64,000 nt of DNA from Berkelbacteria bacterium GW2011_GWE1_39_12 (GTDB lineage Bacteria; Patescibacteriota; UBA1384; UBA12157), in NCBI GenBank assembly GCA_001029735.1, contig CP011213.1:11709-75708 (forward strand), read 5' to 3'. This document shows positions 6,982 through 49,037 of the stretch, piece by piece (position 1 is the first letter of the stretch; each line of letters starts with the position of its first letter). The notes beneath the pieces were generated by a model, which did no database searches, had not been told where the DNA came from, and worked only from the letters and a program-made list of their open reading frames with translations. The translations under genes and the position numbers were made by a program.

Positions 6982-7181
6982 TACGAGAGCCCTCTCCGGT
7001 ACACAGGCGAATTATATTAACTCGTTTGGTTGTAACCGGATTAGCTCTGAGAGGCCTGGGCGCAAGATTAGTTGTTGTAATATCCCAGAGGGAGTTACTT
7101 TGTCTGAGTCTTGCCATAAACCCAGCCTCTGATATTATTTGTCCATTTAAAAAAACAGCCATAAAACTACGGCTGTTTTTT
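6982..7181 (+). ncRNA. candidate structured ncRNA A (two long hairpins plus terminator)
   Basis: Nested GC-rich stems with G-U pairs at 6986-7048 and 7050-7130; promoter upstream, terminator downstream; no credible ORF. Confidence 0.55.
7149..7181. terminator. bidirectional intrinsic terminator
   Basis: aaaaaaacagcc-ataaaactac-ggctgtttttt. Confidence 0.75.
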
Positions 7182-27187: not shown

Positions 27188-27502
27188 ATGCTGGTTTTGA
27201 CCAGAAAGATTGGAGAAAGCATACATATCGGCGATTACATTATGGAATTGCTGGAAGTTCAGAGGGATTCGGTCAAAATCAGCTTGACTGGTAAATTCTC
27301 TCAACAGATTATAAGTCTCAGTTTACGGCAAGAAGTTATTATTGACAAAGATAAAACCATCTCGTTTTTTGTCAATCGAATATGTTATTCCTGTAATCTA
27401 CGATTAGGGTATGCACAGTTTTGCATCAAAGCGCCACGCAGTATCCGGATAATGAGGAGCGAGTTATTGATCGCTCCAAGACAAAACATCAAGGAACCTT
27501 AA
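27188..27502 (+). CDS. CsrA/RsmA-like protein, tandem single-chain form
   Basis: MLVLTRKIGESIHIGD N-terminus and KAPRSIRIMRSEL C-terminus; 104 aa versus about 60 for the CsrA core; promoter TTGACT-17-TATTAT at 27132-27160; SD aaggaggt; terminator at about 27490-27516. Confidence 0.8.
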   Translation: MLVLTRKIGESIHIGDYIMELLEVQRDSVKISLTGKFSQQIISLSLRQEVIIDKDKTISFFVNRICYSCNLRLGYAQFCIKAPRSIRIMRSELLIAPRQNIKEP

Positions 27503-36589: not shown

Positions 36590-38743
36590 TTATTTGGAAT
36601 AATCACACTCACTACACTTGATCTTATCCTTACCTGCTTTCAATAGCAACTTTCCACATTCAGGACACTTTTCACTGGTTGGCTCATTCCAAAATGCCGT
36701 TTTACACTTTGGATAGCCCGAGCAACCCCAAAAAGTTCTGCCTTTTTTAGTTCTTCGTTGAATCAATTTTTCACCACAATTAGGACATGGCACATCTGTT
36801 TCTACGGTGATTGTTTTAGTAGTTTTGCATTCCGGATATCCTTCACAGGCTAAAAACTTACCATAACGACTTTCTTTTAGAACCATATTTTTACCACATT
36901 TTGGACATTTTTCGTCGGTTGGCTCCCCTTCCGGTTTATTTTCTTCACCGGGTTTAGTGATTGGGCGCGTAAATTTGCACTCAGGGTAACCCTTACAAGC
37001 CATGAATTTACCAAAACGTCCCATTTTTATCATTAGATTTTGACCGCATTTCGGACATTTTTCGTCGGTTTCTTCTTGAAGATCGGCTTTTTTAACGCTT
37101 TCCATTTTTTCAGTTAAATTCTTGGCAAATGGGTCGTAAAACTCTTTAAGAACTGGTTGCCATTTGAGTTTTCCTTCCGCAATTTCATCTAAATTTTCTT
37201 CCATTTTAGCCGTAAAATCATAGTCGACGATTTGAGGAAAATTTTCCACTAAAATATCGCTGACGGCAATACCGATATCTTTAGGTATAAACCTACCTTC
37301 GATTTTTTCCACGTATCCCCTGTCTTGGATAGTAGATAAGGTTGGAGCGTAGGTTGAAGGTCGGCCAATCCCCCGCTTTTCGAGTTCTTTAATCAAACTT
37401 CCTTCAGAGTAACGCGGTAATGGTTCGGTAAAGTGCTGAATTTTATCTAATTTTTCCAAGCTTAATTTATCGCCTATATTAAGCTCGGGAAGAAAATTTT
37501 CCATCGCCTCATTAGTCTTGTAGAGTTTCATGAAACCGTCAAATTTAACCTTTAAGCCCTTGGCAGTAAAGATAAATTCGCCGTTCTTGATTTTTGCGGT
37601 GGTTTCCGCCACAATCGCCTCTTGCATCTGGGAAGCCATCATCTTTTTCCAGATTAATTCATAAATCTTTTGATGCTGAGCGGTTAACGGAATTTTATCT
37701 GAAGTAACGTTCATATCTGTCGGACGGATAGCTTCATGTGCTTCTTGAGCGCCTTTGGATTTGGTTTTAAAAACTCGCGGCGTTTCTAATGCGTATTTTT
37801 CGCCATATTTAGAGGTAATAACTTCTTGTGCTTGTTTTAACGCCTGGGCTGAGATATTAACAGAGTCAGTTCTCATATAGGTGATGAAACCGTCTTCATA
37901 AAGGTTTTGGGCTAACCGCATGGTCTGTTTGGCACTGTATTTGAACTTACTGCCGGCTTCCATTTGCAGAGTACTAGTGGTAAATGGCGGCGAAGGATGC
38001 TTTTTTTTATCTTCACTCTTTAAATCTGCAACTTCATAATCCCCTGTTTTCAACTGATCATCAATTTCTTTGGCCTCTTTTTCGCTTTTGATGGCCAATT
38101 TATCCAGTTTTTTGCCACTTCTCTCGGTTAAATCAGCTGTAAATTGTACCTTATTCTTACTAAGTAAAGCTTCAATAGACCAATATTCAACCGGTATAAA
38201 TTTTTGTATTTCTTTTTCGCGCTCGACAACCAGCCGCACCGCAACGGATTGAACTCTACCGGCGGACAGGCCTCTGGCCACTTTTTGCCATAAAAACGGT
38301 GAAAGTTTATAACCTACCAAACGGTCTAGGACACGACGGGCTTGCTGCGCATCAACCAGATCCATGTCGATTTCTCGAGGATGTTCAACGGCAGAAGTGA
38401 TGGCGGATTTAGTGATTTCAGTAAAAGTAATACGTTGATATGGTATTTTAGGCTTTAAGGCTTCGACTAAATGAAAAGCGATGGCCTCCCCTTCTCTATC
38501 ATAGTCAGTTGCAAGATAGACTTTGTCGGCTTTAGCCATAGCCGATTTAAGAGCTTTAATGGTTTTTTCGGCTTTTTCAGGGATTTCATAGGTTGGTTCA
38601 AAGTTTTTCTTGGTATCTACCCCAATTTTACTTGAAGGTAAATCGCGGACATGACCAAAAGAGGCCAAGACTTTATAATCTTTGCCCAAATATTTTTCGA
38701 TGGTTTTCCCCTTTGCGGGAGACTCAACTATAACTAAATTCAT
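36590..38743 (-). CDS. topA: DNA topoisomerase I
   Basis: LVIVESPAK, DYDREGE, SAGRVQS, ITYMRTDS, C-terminal zinc ribbons. Confidence 0.98.
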   Translation of the reverse strand: MNLVIVESPAKGKTIEKYLGKDYKVLASFGHVRDLPSSKIGVDTKKNFEPTYEIPEKAEKTIKALKSAMAKADKVYLATDYDREGEAIAFHLVEALKPKIPYQRITFTEITKSAITSAVEHPREIDMDLVDAQQARRVLDRLVGYKLSPFLWQKVARGLSAGRVQSVAVRLVVEREKEIQKFIPVEYWSIEALLSKNKVQFTADLTERSGKKLDKLAIKSEKEAKEIDDQLKTGDYEVADLKSEDKKKHPSPPFTTSTLQMEAGSKFKYSAKQTMRLAQNLYEDGFITYMRTDSVNISAQALKQAQEVITSKYGEKYALETPRVFKTKSKGAQEAHEAIRPTDMNVTSDKIPLTAQHQKIYELIWKKMMASQMQEAIVAETTAKIKNGEFIFTAKGLKVKFDGFMKLYKTNEAMENFLPELNIGDKLSLEKLDKIQHFTEPLPRYSEGSLIKELEKRGIGRPSTYAPTLSTIQDRGYVEKIEGRFIPKDIGIAVSDILVENFPQIVDYDFTAKMEENLDEIAEGKLKWQPVLKEFYDPFAKNLTEKMESVKKADLQEETDEKCPKCGQNLMIKMGRFGKFMACKGYPECKFTRPITKPGEENKPEGEPTDEKCPKCGKNMVLKESRYGKFLACEGYPECKTTKTITVETDVPCPNCGEKLIQRRTKKGRTFWGCSGYPKCKTAFWNEPTSEKCPECGKLLLKAGKDKIKCSECDYSK

Positions 38744-39849
38744 TTTTTCTTTAATTTTCCTTTAATGACATAACAGGTTCCACCAAGATTGGAAATCATG
38801 CCTTTCATTTCTAACATAATTAGGGTGCTGTTGACAAGGGGTGCGGGTAGTTTGGACGTTCGGATTATCTCATCAACTAGATTTGGTTTCTTTAGTAAGT
38901 TTAACAGAATTTCTTCTTCGGGGGTATCGGCTAGAATCTCTTGGGCCTCTTTTTGACCCGATTTTTCGGCGATCTGTAGATCTGTTAAAATGTCGTCTGC
39001 CTCTGTAACAAGCTTGGCCCCCATTTTGAGTAATTTATTCGGGCCTTCAGAGGTTTCCGAGTAAATATGGCCTGGCACGGCGTAAACTTCCCTGTTATAT
39101 TCTAACGCCGCTTTGGCGGTAATCAGCGAACCAGAATCAACCGCTGCTTCGATTACTAGAGTCCCAAGGCTCATTCCGGCAATAATGCGGTTTCGCATGG
39201 GGAAATTTGATCTGTAAGCCGGCATCCCGATTGGAAACTCGGAAATGATCGCTCCCCCACTCTGAAGAATTTTATCGGCTAAACGAGTGTTGGAAACAGG
39301 GTAAATTTGATCTAACCCACAGCCTAAAACCCCGATAGTTCGGCCTTTTGCCTCGAGAGCGGCTTGGTGAGCTAAGGCATCGATACCTAAAGCTAGACCT
39401 GAAACGATAGTTAATTTATTTTTGGCTAATTTGTAAACCAGATCTTCGGTTAATCTTTGGCCATAGGTAGTGTATTTACGAGAACCAACAACGGCCAGAG
39501 AAACTTCGTCTTCAGGCAAAAGTTTGCCTTTTATATATAGTACGGCCGGAAGATCGGGTATTTCTTTAAGTAGCGCCGGATATTCCTTGTCGGCTAGGGT
39601 AACAACGCTAATTCCCCTCTTTTCGGCTTCTTGGAGTGCCCGATCTGGGTCGACTTTCGAAATTACCTCTTTAACGGCATTAATTTGACCTAAGTCCAAA
39701 CCGGCAGCGGCCAAATCAACCTCTTTTGCGCTCCAAACAGCAGAGATTTTCTTAAACCTCTTATATAGTTTGCCAATGGTTCTGGCACCGATTTTTTGGT
39801 GAGTTGTGAGCGCCACGTAGTACTTTTTCTCGTCCAAATTTCCCTCCAC
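38740..39849 (-). CDS. dprA: DNA-processing protein DprA
   Basis: AVVGSR, VSGLALGIDALAH, FPMRNRIIAG, SGSLITA. Confidence 0.97.
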   Translation of the reverse strand: MEGNLDEKKYYVALTTHQKIGARTIGKLYKRFKKISAVWSAKEVDLAAAGLDLGQINAVKEVISKVDPDRALQEAEKRGISVVTLADKEYPALLKEIPDLPAVLYIKGKLLPEDEVSLAVVGSRKYTTYGQRLTEDLVYKLAKNKLTIVSGLALGIDALAHQAALEAKGRTIGVLGCGLDQIYPVSNTRLADKILQSGGAIISEFPIGMPAYRSNFPMRNRIIAGMSLGTLVIEAAVDSGSLITAKAALEYNREVYAVPGHIYSETSEGPNKLLKMGAKLVTEADDILTDLQIAEKSGQKEAQEILADTPEEEILLNLLKKPNLVDEIIRTSKLPAPLVNSTLIMLEMKGMISNLGGTCYVIKGKLKKK

Positions 39850-39906: not shown

Positions 39907-40002
39907 ATTTAAGTTCAGTCGTATGACTGGGCTCGTTCCACAGGGTGGAATAAGGGTGTAACTCCTCACCTTACAGGGAGTATCAGTTAAGGAGGTAAGT
40001 GT

Positions 40003-40311
40003 ATGCTTACCGAGAAAAAAAGATACGATATTTTCGCCGGTCAAGGAAGGTCAGATTTGATAACCTCATTCTTCGAGAAGGGTTGTCATTATCCTTTTCA
40101 ACTGCAGATTAAGACCGCAGACACGCAAAATACTAGCGCAAATCTTGAAGTGCGGCTGGAGTCGGTAATGTGGGAAGATAATTCCCGAGCCATCTGCATA
40201 CTCCAAGGCTATCTACAAGGTAGTCATCTCTATCCATTCAATGCGAATAGCAGGCATATCAAGGCCTGCTACAACACAGTTACGCGCAGAGGCTGGATAG
40301 AAACTATCTAA
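40003..40311 (+). CDS. hypothetical protein (orphan)
   Basis: taaggaggt SD, own promoter, terminator aaaccccg..cggggttt at 40328-40355. Confidence 0.7.
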   Translation: MLTEKKRYDIFAGQGRSDLITSFFEKGCHYPFQLQIKTADTQNTSANLEVRLESVMWEDNSRAICILQGYLQGSHLYPFNANSRHIKACYNTVTRRGWIETI

Positions 40312-40426
40312 CATTGATCGCAATATCAAACCCCGAGCATTCGTGCCCGGGGTTTGTCATATCTAGTTGACTTTTTAATAAGTTTAGCGTACTATAATTG
40401 GTCGAGTAGACAGAAAGAGGGAGACA

Positions 40427-40915
40427 ATGGAACCAGTGAAATTCCCAGATTGCATTCCAAAGGTTGGCGAGATTGTTCAAGTTGGCAACAGCCGGCGGAG
40501 CCTTGAAGCAAAAGTAAAGGCAAGATGGCCATCTGCTGATGGACGAACCTACTTCGTCCAATTGGACATCGACACACAGGTGATCCTGAGCATAACGCCC
40601 GATGCCGAAGAACGCGGTATGCTCGACAAGGCGAACAATCTTGTGCCATACTGGCGTGCCCATGAGGTATTCAGCGACACAAGGGTCGAACTGAGTCGAC
40701 CGGAGCACGAAGAAATATACAAGACTCCGAGAACGGTTCTGAGCACAAGAACTTCAAACTGTTTGATGAGGATGGCTGGTCTTTCGAATCTAGAGGAGAT
40801 CGCGAATTGCAGTGAGTCATATCTCCTACAGCTTCGAAATTTCGGTCCGAAGATGCTCGAAGAGGTCAAGGAAGTCTTAGCCAGCGCAGGTCTTTCATTG
40901 CGCAGCAACGACTAA
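40427..40915 (+). CDS. protein with C-terminal RNA polymerase alpha-CTD-like HhH domain
   Basis: LSTRTSNCL...LEEIANCSESYLLQLRNFGPKMLEEVKEVLASAGLSL matches the alphaCTD pattern; promoter TTGACT-17-TACTAT at 40367-95; terminator at 40921-50. Confidence 0.8.
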   Translation: MEPVKFPDCIPKVGEIVQVGNSRRSLEAKVKARWPSADGRTYFVQLDIDTQVILSITPDAEERGMLDKANNLVPYWRAHEVFSDTRVELSRPEHEEIYKTPRTVLSTRTSNCLMRMAGLSNLEEIANCSESYLLQLRNFGPKMLEEVKEVLASAGLSLRSND

Positions 40916-40962: not shown

Positions 40963-40990
40963 TTGACAAATCTGAAAATTATGGTATACT
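40963..40990 (+). promoter_or_regulatory. sigma70 promoter of candidate ncRNA B
   Basis: TTGACA, 16 nt spacer, TATACT with extended -10 TG. Confidence 0.65.
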
Positions 40991-40995
40991 TGGGA

Positions 40996-41211
40996 GGCCT
41001 TAAAAATTGAATATCTCTCCAGGTTGTAACTGGTTGGAAGTTGATTGAAACCGAACTCTTAAATTTTGGTCAACTTCTTTCCTATTACACTTAGCCCCGG
41101 CTTTGCACTTTAAAATTAAATTGAAGCCGGTCAAAACCTTCGGGTTGGCTCAAGCTCGTAAAGGAGAGGAAAAAAAAGTTGGACCTGCTCGCAAGAGTGG
41201 GTCCTTCTTTT
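40996..41211 (+). ncRNA. candidate multi-junction structured ncRNA B
   Basis: Closing stem 41014-20/41163-69, long stem 41036-50/41064-78, three-way junction with UUCG hairpin, GCAA-loop terminator 41181-41211. Confidence 0.6.
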
Positions 41212-41934
41212 TTATCGCTTAAAATCTTGATAGAGCTCGCTAAAAATATCGTCGGCTAAAGAAACATAGAATTCATCGAGATCTTTTTTACTAGGCTTAT
41301 TTTTATTGAACGTTACGAAATCGGCATCTTCAATGATAGCCAATGGAGTCTGTTCCGATCCTTCACCCATCGCTAAGACAGCTGTAACGGCTAAGCCGTC
41401 AACTATATTTACTCTTTCAAACTGTAACTTCCGACCAAAAATATCTTCTTTCCCAATATAACTTTTGAGCGGTGAAAACCCGTAAAAGCCGATAGCGACA
41501 CCGAGAACACCACATCTGAGCGGCAATGATCTGCTATCGGTAATAATGACTCCGAAATCTGTTTTATTGTATTTTTTTGATAAGTACTCATAAATTTTCT
41601 TCGCTGTGTTTTGCGGATTTTTCGGCAATAAGATATAATCACCGTTCCCATTGGATTCGTCAATTCCAGCCCCGGAAATAAATGCGTTATGTTTTATGGT
41701 AAGGAGACGATTGTTACAATTTCTTTTGGCGGAGATATGGTCCGCTTCATCTTTTATTAAGAATTCTTTGTCGAGTTCTTTTGAAGCGATACGGTTTTCC
41801 ATTAAGGAAATTATTTTTGAGGTGATAACGATGATGGAATTATCTTTAATTGTTTTTATATATTCATTAAGAAATTGATCAGTTGATAGTTGATTTGCAA
41901 GAATCTTTTTAGTTTTTATAACTTTAATTTTCAT
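41212..41934 (-). CDS. CofE-like gamma-glutamyl ligase (F420-0:L-glutamate ligase family)
   Basis: IVITSKIIS..E, AGIDESN, GVIITDS, MGEGSEQTP. Confidence 0.88.
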   Translation of the reverse strand: MKIKVIKTKKILANQLSTDQFLNEYIKTIKDNSIIVITSKIISLMENRIASKELDKEFLIKDEADHISAKRNCNNRLLTIKHNAFISGAGIDESNGNGDYILLPKNPQNTAKKIYEYLSKKYNKTDFGVIITDSRSLPLRCGVLGVAIGFYGFSPLKSYIGKEDIFGRKLQFERVNIVDGLAVTAVLAMGEGSEQTPLAIIEDADFVTFNKNKPSKKDLDEFYVSLADDIFSELYQDFKR

Positions 41935-42501: not shown

Positions 42502-42927
42502 CTATTTAGCTAATTCTATTCCCATGCTGCGAGCAGTACCTAAAATAATTTTTTTGGCAGCTTCCATATCGCGAGCATTCAAATCGTCCATCTTGATTTT
42601 GGCGATTTCTTCGACTTGAGCATCGGTAACTTTGCCGACTTTTTCACGATTTGGGACGCCTGAACCTTTTTCGATTCCAGCGGCTTTGCGTAATAAAACG
42701 GCGGCAGGTGGAGATTTCAAAATGAAATCAAAGGTGCGATCTTCGTAAACAGTAATTTCTACTGGAACGACAGTATCACCCATTTGAGCGGTCGCGGCGT
42801 TGAACTTTGTAACAAAATCCATGATGTTCAAACCGTGCTGACCCAAGGCTGGACCGATCGGAGGCGCCGGATTAGCCTTGCCAGCTGGTGCTTGTAACTT
42901 GATAATTGTTTTAATTTTTTTTGCCAT
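42502..42927 (-). CDS. rplK: 50S ribosomal protein L11
   Basis: [25 protein letters not shown]. Confidence 0.99.
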
Positions 42928-44439: not shown

Positions 44440-45531
44440 TTAAAAAGTTATCTTTCGATGACGGAGGTAAATACTCTGCAATATGCCGATGGCGGCCATG
44501 TTTGTAATCATCGACGAACCTCCCGACGAAACAAAAGGCAGCGGAATACCCGTCACTGGCATAATACCAAGATTCATACCGATATTTACTAGAATTTGAA
44601 AAAGAAAAATTCCGGCAATTCCCCCGGACAAATACATGCCAAAATTATCTTTCGCTATAACTGCTACGTTAATTGTCCTCATAACCAAAAGGATAAGCAA
44701 GATAATTAAAAAAGTCGAACCAATAAAACCAGTTGCTTCTGCCGTGCCAGCGAAAATAAAATCAGTATGCGAAACAGGTAAAAAGTTTAATTGGCTTTGA
44801 GATCCTTTACCTAGGCCAGTACCCCAAAGACCACCAGAGCCAACAGCAATTTTTGCTTGAGAAACATTATAACCTGTTCCATGTGGATCGGCCGAAGGAT
44901 TTATAAAACTTGTGATTCTAAGCTGTTGGTACGGTTTTAAATAATGCCAACCAAGCGGTGAAATTACCACTGCGATAGCTAAGGCAACAATCAAATATAT
45001 TTTTTTTATTGGAGAAAGAAAAAGAACAGTAAGCAGTCCAATAAATATTACGGAGGCTGTTCCTAAATCTGGCTGGCGTAAAATTAATAAGGTAGGCACT
45101 CCAACCAAAGCCAGAATAAAAATTATTTTCCTCAAATCTAGTTCTTGCCAATCAGAAAAAAACTTAGCGAGAACAATTAAGATAATAATCTTAAAAAGTT
45201 CGGAGGGTTGAAGTTGAAAAAATTTCAAATCTATCCAACGCGTGGCACCAAAACTTTTTGAACCGATCAATAAAACTGCGATCAGTAAAATTACACCAAT
45301 TATATAAAGAACCAGCGAAAGACCTTTAAGTGTGCGGTAATCTAAATACGTTAAAAAGACCGTGGCTGCGATCCCGATTAAAAAAAACTCAATTTGATTA
45401 AGAGCAAGTGTAGAGTTAGTGCCATAACTAATTGAAAAAATGACAGCCGTGCCCAAACCGGTCAATAATAATGGTAATAAAAACAAAGACCAATCTAAAC
45501 CCAGTGTAAATTTGAGACGCGATAGTTTCAC
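44440..45531 (-). CDS. rodA: rod shape-determining protein RodA (SEDS)
   Basis: GATRWI, QPSE, QPDLGT, HTDFIF, PVTGIPLPFVSSGGSS. Confidence 0.93.
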   Translation of the reverse strand: MKLSRLKFTLGLDWSLFLLPLLLTGLGTAVIFSISYGTNSTLALNQIEFFLIGIAATVFLTYLDYRTLKGLSLVLYIIGVILLIAVLLIGSKSFGATRWIDLKFFQLQPSELFKIIILIVLAKFFSDWQELDLRKIIFILALVGVPTLLILRQPDLGTASVIFIGLLTVLFLSPIKKIYLIVALAIAVVISPLGWHYLKPYQQLRITSFINPSADPHGTGYNVSQAKIAVGSGGLWGTGLGKGSQSQLNFLPVSHTDFIFAGTAEATGFIGSTFLIILLILLVMRTINVAVIAKDNFGMYLSGGIAGIFLFQILVNIGMNLGIMPVTGIPLPFVSSGGSSMITNMAAIGILQSIYLRHRKITF

Positions 45532-48500
45532 TTTTTAACCCCGATCCAAAGATCATCATTATTCAACTTAATATCAATGCTTTGGTCGACTTCTCGACGT
45601 TCAAATTTAATATCAGTTAATTTGGTTTCGTTTTTAATTTCATCCTTAAATTTTTTAATTAAATCAATAATTCCCAAATTACCATCAGCAAATAATTCGA
45701 CTAAATCATCAGGACTATAGCCAGATTTTTTTCTTAAATCTTGAATTGCACGAACAATATCATTTTTCATACCTTCGTCCTGCAATTCTGGTGTGATTTC
45801 TTGATCGATTTCTATTTCTTTGTATCCTGTAAATACTACTTCTTTTACATTTACTTCATCCTCAATTATTTTTTCAAATTCTTCGTCTAATTTTTTACCG
45901 CCGTATTTTAGATATCCAAGCGGCTGTCTAACTTTATATTTCGGTCCAAGCGCCGCACGAGCAGCTAAACCTTGTTCGATAATTACGCGAGTCTCTGACA
46001 TTTTTTCATTTATGCCTTTATTAATTATATCTTCATTAGCCACTGGAAAATTTTCTAAATGAACCGATTCCCTACTGGTCAAATTCTTAAAAATTTCTTC
46101 GGTAGTAAACGGCATAAAGGGTGCCAGTGTTTTTGACAGTTCAACTAAAACAGTATGCAAAGTTTGATATGCGTTGTTTTTATCCTCAGCATTCCCCTGT
46201 TTTTGAAAACGCTTACGTGATCGGCGGATATACCAATTTGAAAGGTTATCAACGAACGGAACAAATAAGCGCGCGGCTTTTGTTAATTCATATTTTTCCA
46301 TATTGGCATTGACATCTTTAATTAACTGGTTTAGTTCCGACAAAATCCACTTATCCAATATGTTTTCAGATTTTGCGGACAATTCAGAATTTTCTTTTGC
46401 TTTAAAATTATCGATATTGGCATAAAGAGTGAAAAACGAATAAGAATTCCAAAGCATTCTAAAGAAGCCTTTGCTAAATTGATCCAAATCTTTTTCTGAA
46501 AAATTTAAATTCTCCGCTTGTAAGATTTGCGATGAAAGTAAATACATGCGCAAAACATCAGCGCCGTATCTATCGAGTACTTCAACAGGATCCGGATAGT
46601 TTTTCAAACGCTTACTCATTTTTTTGCCGTCTTCAGCCAAAACGATTCCGCTTACAATAACGTTTTTATACGCAACACTTTTTTTAATAGACGTAGCGAT
46701 CAAATGTAAATAATAAAACCAAGCGCGTGTTTGGTCTTGGGCTTCGGCGATAAAATTTGCTGGAAAATAATTGGCAAATTTTTCTTTATTTTCAAACGGG
46801 TAATGGATTTGCGCGTAAGGCATTGAACCGCTATCAAACCAAGTGTCTAAAACATCTGGCACACGATGTGCTTCTTTACCGCATTTATCGCAATTAATTG
46901 TGAAATTATCAATTTTATCTTTATGTAAATCAACTATTTGAGCATTCTCATCAACATAGAATGTCTGAACTCCGTTATGATCAAAATCTTCACGATCGAA
47001 GTATTCATCCAGCTTACAATCGTTTAAAATTTTATTCATGGAAGCATTTGTACCGCCATGGCCAACAATTAGAATATTTTTACCGGCGTATTTTTTAGCA
47101 ATTTCTTTCAGAAAATTTTCAATTCGATCAACTACTTCTTGACGATTTTCTCCAGTAGTTCCAAATTTACAGTTAAATCTTTCTTCCAAGGTCTTTAAAG
47201 CTTTATAACTTTTATAGCTTTCGTCTTCTTTGAGTAATTCTTCTTTTGATGTATCATTCCATGAGCCAAATTGGTTTTCAGTAATGCGGTCGTCGAAAAT
47301 TAATTCAGTCTGTAATTTTTTATTGATAATCTCTGCCGTTTGTTTGGTTCTTAAAACTGGCGAACTAATAATCAGATCAATGTCTTTTAATTTATCAGCG
47401 CCATTTTCTGCTTGGACCTTCCCCTTTTCCGTTAATGGAAATTTATCTAACGAATGTGAACTAATTTTTAAAACATTTTTTTCACTTTCGCCGTGACGAA
47501 CAAAACTTATTTTGGTGATTTTTTGATTTGTCTCTTTTCTTAAATCATCCATTGAGCCAAAAACTTTAATTTCACCACATCCGCCATGCTCGGCGGAACA
47601 TCGCCACAAAGGAATAACCGAAGCCCAATAACGCTGGCGTGAAATTGACCAATCTCTAGCACCTTCCAACCATTTTCCAAATCTGCCTTCTTTAATGTGT
47701 TTTGGCGACCAATTAATTTCTTTGGCTAAATTCAATAAATCAGGCTTTACTTTGATAACGTTAACAAACCAGGATGACGTCGCGTAATTTAACAAAGGAG
47801 TTTCACAACGCCAACAATGCGGATAAGAATGTTCGTATTTTTCTTTAGAAAAGAGCAAATTTCTTGAAGCTAAATTCTTAATAATTTCTACATCTGTTTT
47901 CTGAACATCTTCTGGATGTTTAACATGCATACCAGCAAATTGTTTAACCTCAGGCTTAATAATACCGTCCATACCGATGTGCTGTACAAACGGCAAATTT
48001 TTCTTTTTTCCTAAATTTAAATCGTCTTCTCCAAATGCTGGTGCAATGTGAACAATACCAGTCCCCTCTTCGGTTGTAACAAAAGGAGCATCTACAATCT
48101 TCCAACCGTTGTTACTGTTTTCGATTTCCAAGTCTTTATAATCACGATACAACGGATCATATTTTTGACCGATTAGTTCTTCGCCAGGAAAATCTTCCAA
48201 TTTTTCAAATTCTCTATCTTTAAAAACATCGGCTAATCTGTTTTTAGCTAAAATATATTTTTCCGATTCACCAGTATCTTCGTTTTGTGATTGAACTTTA
48301 ACATACTCAATGTCTTTTCCGACCGCTAATGCTACATTGGCGATTAATGTCCATGGAGTAGTTGTCCAAGCAAGGACGAAGGTCCCCTGTTCATCGATTA
48401 GCTCAAATTTGGCGGTAGCAGATAAATCTTTGATTGTCTTATAACCTTCAGTTACTTCTGATTGAGATAGAGTTGTTTCGCAGCGCGGGCAGATATGCAT

Positions 48501-49037
48501 TGATCTATAGCCTTCATAAACCAAATCTTTATCGTACAGCTCTTTAAAAACCCACCAGACTGATTCCATGTATGAAAAATCCATAGTACGATAAGCGTTT
48601 TTCATATCAACCCAGCGGCCTAGTTTTGGAATAATTTTTTCCCATTCATCTACATAGCCCAAAACTTTATCACGGCAAATATTATTGAATTTATCAATGC
48701 CTAAATCTTCGATTTCTTTTTTATGAGTGATTCCAAGTTCTTGCTCAGCAATATTTTCAATCGGAAGGCCGTGACAATCCCATCCCCAAATACGATCGAC
48801 TTGAAAACCCTTCATTGTGAAAAATCTTGGCACCGCATCTTTGGCAACACTTTGAACTAGATGCCCATAATGAGGAGTTCCGGTCGCAAACGGCGGGCCA
48901 TCGTAAAAACTAAATATTGGTGAGCCTTTGCGATTTTCAATAGATTTTTTAAAAGTATCGTTTTCTTGCCAAAAGTTTAAAATCTCGTTTTCGATCTCTG
49001 GCAATTTAACTTGGGAGTCAATTTTTTTATAACTCAT
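45528..49037 (-). CDS. ileS: isoleucine--tRNA ligase (IleRS2 type) with inserted histidine phosphatase domain
   Basis: FYDGPPFATGTPHYGH, WTTTPWT, DWSISRQRYW, KMSKR; RHGE..SSP..RTKQTA..VGHGG insert. Confidence 0.95.
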   Translation of the reverse strand: MSYKKIDSQVKLPEIENEILNFWQENDTFKKSIENRKGSPIFSFYDGPPFATGTPHYGHLVQSVAKDAVPRFFTMKGFQVDRIWGWDCHGLPIENIAEQELGITHKKEIEDLGIDKFNNICRDKVLGYVDEWEKIIPKLGRWVDMKNAYRTMDFSYMESVWWVFKELYDKDLVYEGYRSMHICPRCETTLSQSEVTEGYKTIKDLSATAKFELIDEQGTFVLAWTTTPWTLIANVALAVGKDIEYVKVQSQNEDTGESEKYILAKNRLADVFKDREFEKLEDFPGEELIGQKYDPLYRDYKDLEIENSNNGWKIVDAPFVTTEEGTGIVHIAPAFGEDDLNLGKKKNLPFVQHIGMDGIIKPEVKQFAGMHVKHPEDVQKTDVEIIKNLASRNLLFSKEKYEHSYPHCWRCETPLLNYATSSWFVNVIKVKPDLLNLAKEINWSPKHIKEGRFGKWLEGARDWSISRQRYWASVIPLWRCSAEHGGCGEIKVFGSMDDLRKETNQKITKISFVRHGESEKNVLKISSHSLDKFPLTEKGKVQAENGADKLKDIDLIISSPVLRTKQTAEIINKKLQTELIFDDRITENQFGSWNDTSKEELLKEDESYKSYKALKTLEERFNCKFGTTGENRQEVVDRIENFLKEIAKKYAGKNILIVGHGGTNASMNKILNDCKLDEYFDREDFDHNGVQTFYVDENAQIVDLHKDKIDNFTINCDKCGKEAHRVPDVLDTWFDSGSMPYAQIHYPFENKEKFANYFPANFIAEAQDQTRAWFYYLHLIATSIKKSVAYKNVIVSGIVLAEDGKKMSKRLKNYPDPVEVLDRYGADVLRMYLLSSQILQAENLNFSEKDLDQFSKGFFRMLWNSYSFFTLYANIDNFKAKENSELSAKSENILDKWILSELNQLIKDVNANMEKYELTKAARLFVPFVDNLSNWYIRRSRKRFQKQGNAEDKNNAYQTLHTVLVELSKTLAPFMPFTTEEIFKNLTSRESVHLENFPVANEDIINKGINEKMSETRVIIEQGLAARAALGPKYKVRQPLGYLKYGGKKLDEEFEKIIEDEVNVKEVVFTGYKEIEIDQEITPELQDEGMKNDIVRAIQDLRKKSGYSPDDLVELFADGNLGIIDLIKKFKDEIKNETKLTDIKFERREVDQSIDIKLNNDDLWIGVKK

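Follow-up and report, generated by a model that had tools for sequence, protein, structure and literature searches.

Can a structured domain within an RNA control whether a Shine-Dalgarno decoy is available to a partner anti-Shine-Dalgarno RNA in a member of the Patescibacteria? The question is raised by a short, apparently noncoding transcription unit of Berkelbacteria bacterium GW2011_GWE1_39_12, which lies at 40963–41213 of the 64,000-nucleotide stretch of DNA analysed here (the window). Patescibacteria have tiny genomes, and a description of a regulatory RNA in this group was not found in the literature searched. An earlier note on this DNA had proposed a stand-alone structured RNA outside the Rfam families, a view borne out by Rfam scans, homologue searches and covariation. 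Judged by comparison among genomes, the gene at approximately 40997–41213 (+) almost certainly encodes a real and conserved RNA.

Transcription unit and known RNA families

The unit is led by a sigma-70-type promoter (40963..40990, +; 11 of 12 matches), in which TTGACA at 40963 and the extended -10 element recognized before (TG-n-TATACT, ending at 40990) are separated by a 16-nt spacer. With its 5′ end placed from the -10 box, the predicted transcript comprises about 217 nt (40997..41213, +) and folds at -74 kcal/mol (z -5.4); none of 200 shuffled sequences folded equally well. It ends in an intrinsic terminator (41170..41213, +) consisting of the GCAA-capped stem noticed earlier (41181–41204) with an A run before it and a U run after it, and this terminator is probably common to the RNA and the convergent gene. 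The suggestion that a 13-codon ORF is the only Shine-Dalgarno-led frame did not hold, as other such frames exist. The 13-codon frame begins at a TTG (41007), and the GGAGG that leads it is placed no later than the predicted transcription start. Its peptide is not supported as a product: the frame recurs in none of the 29 other homologues.

A scan of the window with Rfam 15 (4227 families) gave no match at the gathering threshold. The best score between 39800 and 41400 was 20.8 bits, to a miRNA model, and 12 related loci yielded only two sub-threshold matches. No tRNA or tmRNA was detected in the window. The RNA is neither the tmRNA nor the RNase P RNA of the genome, both of which were found elsewhere above the cut-off (C1:683727-684055 and C1:742977-743309, respectively). 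A bacterial SRP RNA was also rejected: RF00169 had no match, and Ffh (PF02978) had no match in the genome. ARAGORN, which misses the tmRNA that Rfam finds, listed 43 tRNAs in this genome (G000), including tRNA-Ile(TAT) but no tRNA-Asn, for which a relaxed scan gave only weak candidates.

Distribution and locus context

BLAST found homologues in seven of nine sister-family genomes. The first covariance model detected one copy in 11 of the 12 genomes of the order, the twelfth having a 3′ half at a contig end, and two further model rounds with the 3′ domain raised the number first to 29 and finally to 41 of the 142 genomes of the class, with one match each. The last model matched 46 of 53 searched loci, and the match of model R3 in this genome scored 75.6 bits. 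The copies are located mostly between rplK and dprA; within the fetched stretch, rplK was downstream in 37 of the 46 homologues and dprA upstream in 27. A promoter pattern was present upstream of 43 homologues, and 43 had a terminator.

Among 151 genomes drawn across the phylum, there were four weak matches outside the class, three of them with the same layout; the match in G168 was located inside an ORF and was dropped. The copies in G247, G165 and G264 (loci L143, L145 and L146) have the same rod-plus-junction layout, two of them with the anti-Shine-Dalgarno tip described below, and lie between genes that, by resemblance, are presumably mfd and pth. Pattern scans gave nine genome and 20 metagenome matches, of which only three fit the model; these were kept out of the count, since they could stem from genomes that it already includes. 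The single viral match was inside a topoisomerase frame and was regarded as chance, and a second viral pattern scan returned none. The promoter-plus-tip pattern was too narrow and missed a known copy, and alignment A5, which contained opposite-strand noise, was left out.

In the window, the divergent neighbor is dprA (38740..39849, -; PF02481), and the convergent conserved neighbor (42502..42927, -) is a gene that we take from its sequence to be rplK (L11). Two further convergent genes, sua5 and an F420-ligase-like gene, lie between the RNA and rplK. The variable gap between dprA and the RNA contains two lineage-specific ORF units of 102 and 162 aa (40003..40915, +), the latter with an RNA polymerase alpha-CTD-like domain. 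The earlier note had placed the RNA third in a promoter-gene-terminator series with these two units. The series does exist locally, but a functional tie between the RNA and the ORF units is not upheld: in G009 and G010, both units are absent and the RNA lies directly between dprA and sua5, so that the series represents a local insertion site rather than a system.

Several features of the surroundings are recorded here in their own right. The 162-aa protein (40427-40915, +) combines an N-terminal part of no known kind with the alpha-CTD-like domain (PF03118). The 102-aa ORF is preceded by a leader of about 90 nt (39913-40002, +) with three hairpins, one of them formed by CUCCU and a GGGAG run that precedes the Shine-Dalgarno sequence. 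A gene of 1169 aa (45528-49037, -), presumably isoleucyl-tRNA synthetase-like, has an insert with an RHG motif that resembles a histidine phosphatase domain. Another structured element, RNA A (6990-7160, +), folds at -51.8 kcal/mol and has no BLAST homologue in five relatives, where the best match had an E value of 0.025 over 20 nt. A weak similarity between RNA A and the present RNA had been pointed out; the shared match can be confirmed, although it falls within a variable segment, and RNA A did not match the model at E<=10, which speaks against kinship.

A three-way-junction domain with two predicted competing folds

The conserved part of the RNA is its 3′ domain (41074..41171, +), which is supported by covariation. 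It is closed by P1, formed by strand M (UUCUUUCCUAUUACA; 41075..41089, +) with the Shine-Dalgarno-like tail Y (GUAAAGGAGAGGAAAA; 41158..41173, +). P2 (41090-41096/41147-41154, +) leads to a three-way junction from which P3 (41097-41104/41123-41130, +), with an AU-rich loop, and the variable P4 (41135-41146, +) emerge. In the alternative rod fold, M, which is largely invariant in alignment A1, pairs with the upstream strand X (41024..41040, +). We refer to the M–X arrangement as the open fold and to the M–Y arrangement as the closed fold. In this genome, the inner part of the rod is the 15-bp stem reported earlier (41036-41050/41064-41078, +), with a tip loop (41051-41063) that lacks CCCCUCCUU.

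This conserved core differs from the fold given in the earlier note. The three-way junction proposed there is backed by covariation in 46 homologues but is absent from the full-length minimum-energy fold. The closing stem tctctcc/ggagagg does occur in the fold of this genome, where the leader UCUCUCC (41014..41020, +) is able to cover the tail; it is not conserved, however, and tail-leader pairing is found in only eight of 46 homologues. The pairing of GGAGAGG that is conserved is the one with CUUUCCUAUUAC (41077-41088). For the closed fold, 89.8% of the cells in the alignment of 46 sequences are paired, compared with 42-56% in slid controls, and 26 of 29 pairs show two-sided change, although these pair counts are inflated because the alignments were fitted to the model.

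In all 46 homologues, M can form 8-15 bp with X and 7-15 bp with Y. The M-X match was better than in shuffled leaders in 33 of 46, a comparison made with dinucleotide shuffles. At one M position, which was scorable in 33 of the 46 homologues (the other 13 were not scorable), each of the 10 homologues with C in M had G in X as well as in Y, the single one with G had C in both, and 14 of the 22 with U had A in both. X is also kept in G006 and G010, where the tip and inner rod are gone and the 5′ rod is a short hairpin. The two folds are predicted to lie within 5 kcal/mol of each other in 28 of 46 homologues, with a median of 2.7 kcal/mol in favor of the X fold. The tail is mostly free in the open fold of only 26 of the 46 homologues, and only eight have a dominant closed fold; in this genome, the leader is predicted to keep the tail 80% covered in the open fold as well. 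Taken as a model, the RNA is likely a conserved two-state molecule in which M pairs alternately with X or Y and the three strands change together.

The composition of the P3 loop bears on three other explanations. If the three-way-junction domain were a protein- or ligand-binding module, X would be a leader that keeps it inactive until processing, and the Shine-Dalgarno-like tail would be a relic of an anti-Shine-Dalgarno hairpin. Among the 46 P3 loops, 26 contain UUAAAA, where shuffles would give three (related sequences not being independent); the domain persists in homologues that have lost the tip, and M itself resembles the tip sequence. No partner protein was found, and the behavior of Y described below is left unexplained by such a module, so we regard it as doubtful, though still a serious candidate. 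An ordinary base-pairing small RNA that recognizes mRNAs through the AU-rich P3 loop or through strand M would agree with the pyrimidine-rich character of M and with the presence of CAU, the complement of a start codon, in 20 of 46 P3 loops against 9.5 expected. The loop in this genome lacks CAU, M is paired in both folds and AU-rich loops are weak seeds, which makes a seed of this kind quite improbable.

The third explanation is a missing 6S-like RNA that binds the RNA polymerase holoenzyme. The size and single copy are right for such an RNA, and the Rfam 6S model (RF00013) found none in this genome at E<=1 and none in the 142 class genomes, in a search that was positive in only five of 14 controls. 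The RNA itself, however, does not match the 6S model, neither of its folds is a rod with a central bubble, and the three-way junction covaries. A mimic of the -10 element in the P3 loop was also considered and rejected, the pattern TAnnnT not being enriched (35 of 46 loops versus 29.4 expected). We therefore consider a 6S-like role very improbable.

The earlier note had guessed at a sponge for a CsrA-like protein acting through GGA motifs. The genome does contain a partial CsrA-domain match (27188-27289, +), which lies in a frame of 104 aa and covers positions 1-35 of the 53 in the model, and the transcript has four GGA motifs. None of the four is in a hairpin loop, PF02599 was detected in 12 of 142 class genomes, and 23 of the 29 RNA-bearing genomes then known have no CsrA match, leaving only six with one. 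The sponge is thus extremely improbable.

Loss of the anti-Shine-Dalgarno tip and the proposed partner RNA C

Many relatives of this RNA carry the anti-Shine-Dalgarno motif CCCCUCCUU at the tip of the 5′ rod (30 of 46 homologues), and it is predicted to be unpaired in all 30. The tip was present in none of 11 homologues of the own order and in 16 of 19 others; the RNA described here likewise has no unpaired CCUCCU motif in a loop. Of 30 class genomes that had given no model match, 16 proved to have a tip hairpin in the rplK region, and several of these hairpins are not accompanied by the 3′ domain. No consensus fold emerged from an alignment of 26 tip hairpins, owing to their differing registers. 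The RNA of this genome sits beside rplK and dprA with a promoter, a 5′ rod and a terminator, as the tip-bearing relatives do. The tip motif copies the tail of 16S rRNA. A role as a substitute for a missing 16S anti-Shine-Dalgarno sequence was rejected because the 16S tail of this genome is intact and ends in the normal GAUCACCUCCUUUCU.

A separate, promoter-led small RNA with the tip, RNA C, is predicted just before the window on the minus strand (G000:C1 ~11247-11107; locus L084 ~1608-1748). It has a rod of approximately 25 bp with the loop UUUUCCCCUCCUUG and is convergent with a thioredoxin-like gene. A separate tip RNA was found in all 12 genomes of the order, in three of five other tipless genomes and, as an extra copy, in three of eight tip-keeping genomes; G033 and G018 (82% complete) had no tip RNA among nine and four motif sites, respectively. 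From the comparison of these genomes, the present order has lost the tip, which is carried by a separate RNA; tip loss together with a separate copy is represented by few independent lineages. The occurrence of the same type of copy in two tip-keeping genomes suggests that the separate copy was gained first and the tip lost later, an order of events drawn from few independent lineages.

Other arrangements were seen in individual genomes. In G042 (L070 1185-1343), a single transcript next to rplK contains two tip-bearing rods one after the other. In G001 (L109 ~1400-1560), a third family copy with the tip is similar to the 5′ rod that the rplK-locus RNA has in other orders. G050 and G061 (L057 and L060) have, upstream of dprA, an RNA with promoter and terminator that is shorter, shows a hairpin and AGGAGG/GGGAGG runs and lacks the tip; these two RNAs did not match the model, and no promoter-led tip RNA was found in either genome.

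Predicted pairing of the tail and its specificity

The pattern of change in Y points beyond its pairing with M. Y retains a G facing a U of M in 71 of 208 cells, twice the frequency seen for X (35 of 208), and U-G cells are concentrated in outer P1 (44 of 194) as compared with P2 (5 of 150) and P3 (9 of 173). Both features remain unexplained if the junction domain is only a binding module; by sequence comparison, they indicate that Y is likely constrained by a second partner.

One candidate for this partner is the loop of RNA C. The predicted duplex between the tail and the RNA C loop in this genome has an energy of -15.7 kcal/mol with one mismatch, and tail-tip duplexes in nine computed genomes of the order range from -8.7 to -15.9 kcal/mol, G002 being the weak case (-8.7). 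Targets of comparable strength exist: of 919 gene starts, called roughly, 36 match the RNA C loop as well as the tail does or better, and 176 of 10668 scanned windows reach -15.5 kcal/mol against it. The strongest predicted match to the RNA C loop among the 919 is the start of an HU-like gene (G000:C1:679213, +; -20.8 kcal/mol). The tip is invariant, and no covariation between tail and tip was seen by eye at the tip flanks. In tip-keeping homologues, the tail is, by estimate, probably unable to reach its own tip across the 30-bp rod.

The other candidate is 16S rRNA itself. The RNA could be a decoy start site that parks 30S subunits, with the free tail pairing with the 16S anti-Shine-Dalgarno sequence and the AU-rich loop acting as a standby site. 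The normal 16S end of this genome, a 7-bp core duplex between tail and 16S rRNA (-11.3 kcal/mol) and the occurrence of AAGGAGGU with AUG or GUG close behind in several distant homologues are consistent with this. The duplex of the tail with 16S rRNA, however, is weaker than that with the tip loop in 27 of 30 cases, although in this order often by little, and tails outside the order have GAGGG, which fits the tip, in 18 of 19 cases and GAGGU, which fits 16S rRNA, in four of 19. In this order, moreover, no start codon follows the tail core. We consider the parking of 30S subunits unlikely.

Proposed mechanism and significance

We propose, tentatively and as a model that may well need revision, that the RNA is a switchable Shine-Dalgarno decoy for its partner anti-Shine-Dalgarno RNA, RNA C; we see this as possible rather than probable. 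In the closed fold, pairing of M with Y would hide the tail, and in the open fold, pairing of M with X would free it. The free tail would then pair in the cell with the anti-Shine-Dalgarno loop of RNA C and lift the translation block that RNA C is predicted to impose on the genes it presumably represses. The switch might be set by a protein or ligand that binds the AU-rich junction domain, or by processing. Expression of the RNA is presumed. The gene, its conserved position, the three-way-junction domain, the joint change of X, M and Y, the loss of the tip in this order and the separate tip-bearing RNA come from sequence comparison, whereas the similar energies of the two folds and the tail-loop duplex are folding predictions.

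Both halves of the proposed decoy have precedents. RosA sponges the C-rich RoxS through G-rich regions (PMC8216469), and NfeR1 is an example of repression by anti-Shine-Dalgarno loops that block ribosome-binding sites (PMC10746234).

That a class retains a single-copy RNA at one locus, with two covarying folds, suggests a core layer of translation control. If a ligand sets the switch, the RNA would be a riboswitch-like sensor that acts through a trans-acting RNA. The broadest form of the idea is an allosteric system in which an anti-Shine-Dalgarno repressor RNA with a riboswitch-like off-switch is split into two genes in this order, the domain sensing a protein or metabolite and exposing or hiding the Shine-Dalgarno decoy, and so tuning a genome-wide brake on translation; we hold this form to be distinctly unlikely.

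Comparison with known systems

In riboswitch aptamers, a junction domain is closed by a P1 helix whose 5′ strand has a competing partner. The RNA described here has the same three elements, namely, a junction domain, a closing helix and a competing partner for the 5′ strand of this helix. Unlike riboswitch aptamers, it has no Rfam match and no downstream gene, and its terminator looks constitutive.

RosA of Bacillus subtilis and RsaI of Staphylococcus aureus are also stand-alone RNAs, and they use a stretch rich in G to pair with the C-rich loop of a second small RNA (PMC8216469). In contrast to RosA and RsaI, the G-rich tail here closes a three-way-junction domain and has a competing fold, the pairing is a prediction, and the RNA shares ancestry with its proposed target; the distinction is drawn from descriptions of these RNAs, with no direct sequence comparison. 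With the cuckoo (alpha-r14) RNAs such as NfeR1, the relatives of this RNA share an anti-Shine-Dalgarno motif that does not vary and sits in the unpaired loop of variable stems (PMC4615179, PMC10746234). The cuckoo RNAs are alphaproteobacterial and have 2-4 short hairpins bearing CCUCCUCCC, whereas the relatives have one long rod with CCCCUCCUU and the RNA of this genome has no such loop.

No description of this RNA was found in the literature searched, although the motif catalogues in the supplements of large RNA screens could hold one; passages on the CPR RNase P RNA (PMC8172020) and the CPR ribosome (PMC9297842) do not mention it. The RNA belongs neither to the C-rich small RNA family of the cuckoo type nor to the sponges of such RNAs, though its proposed mode is similar. 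What is new here is the tipless form, the junction domain, the predicted X/M/Y switch and the split of the system into two genes.
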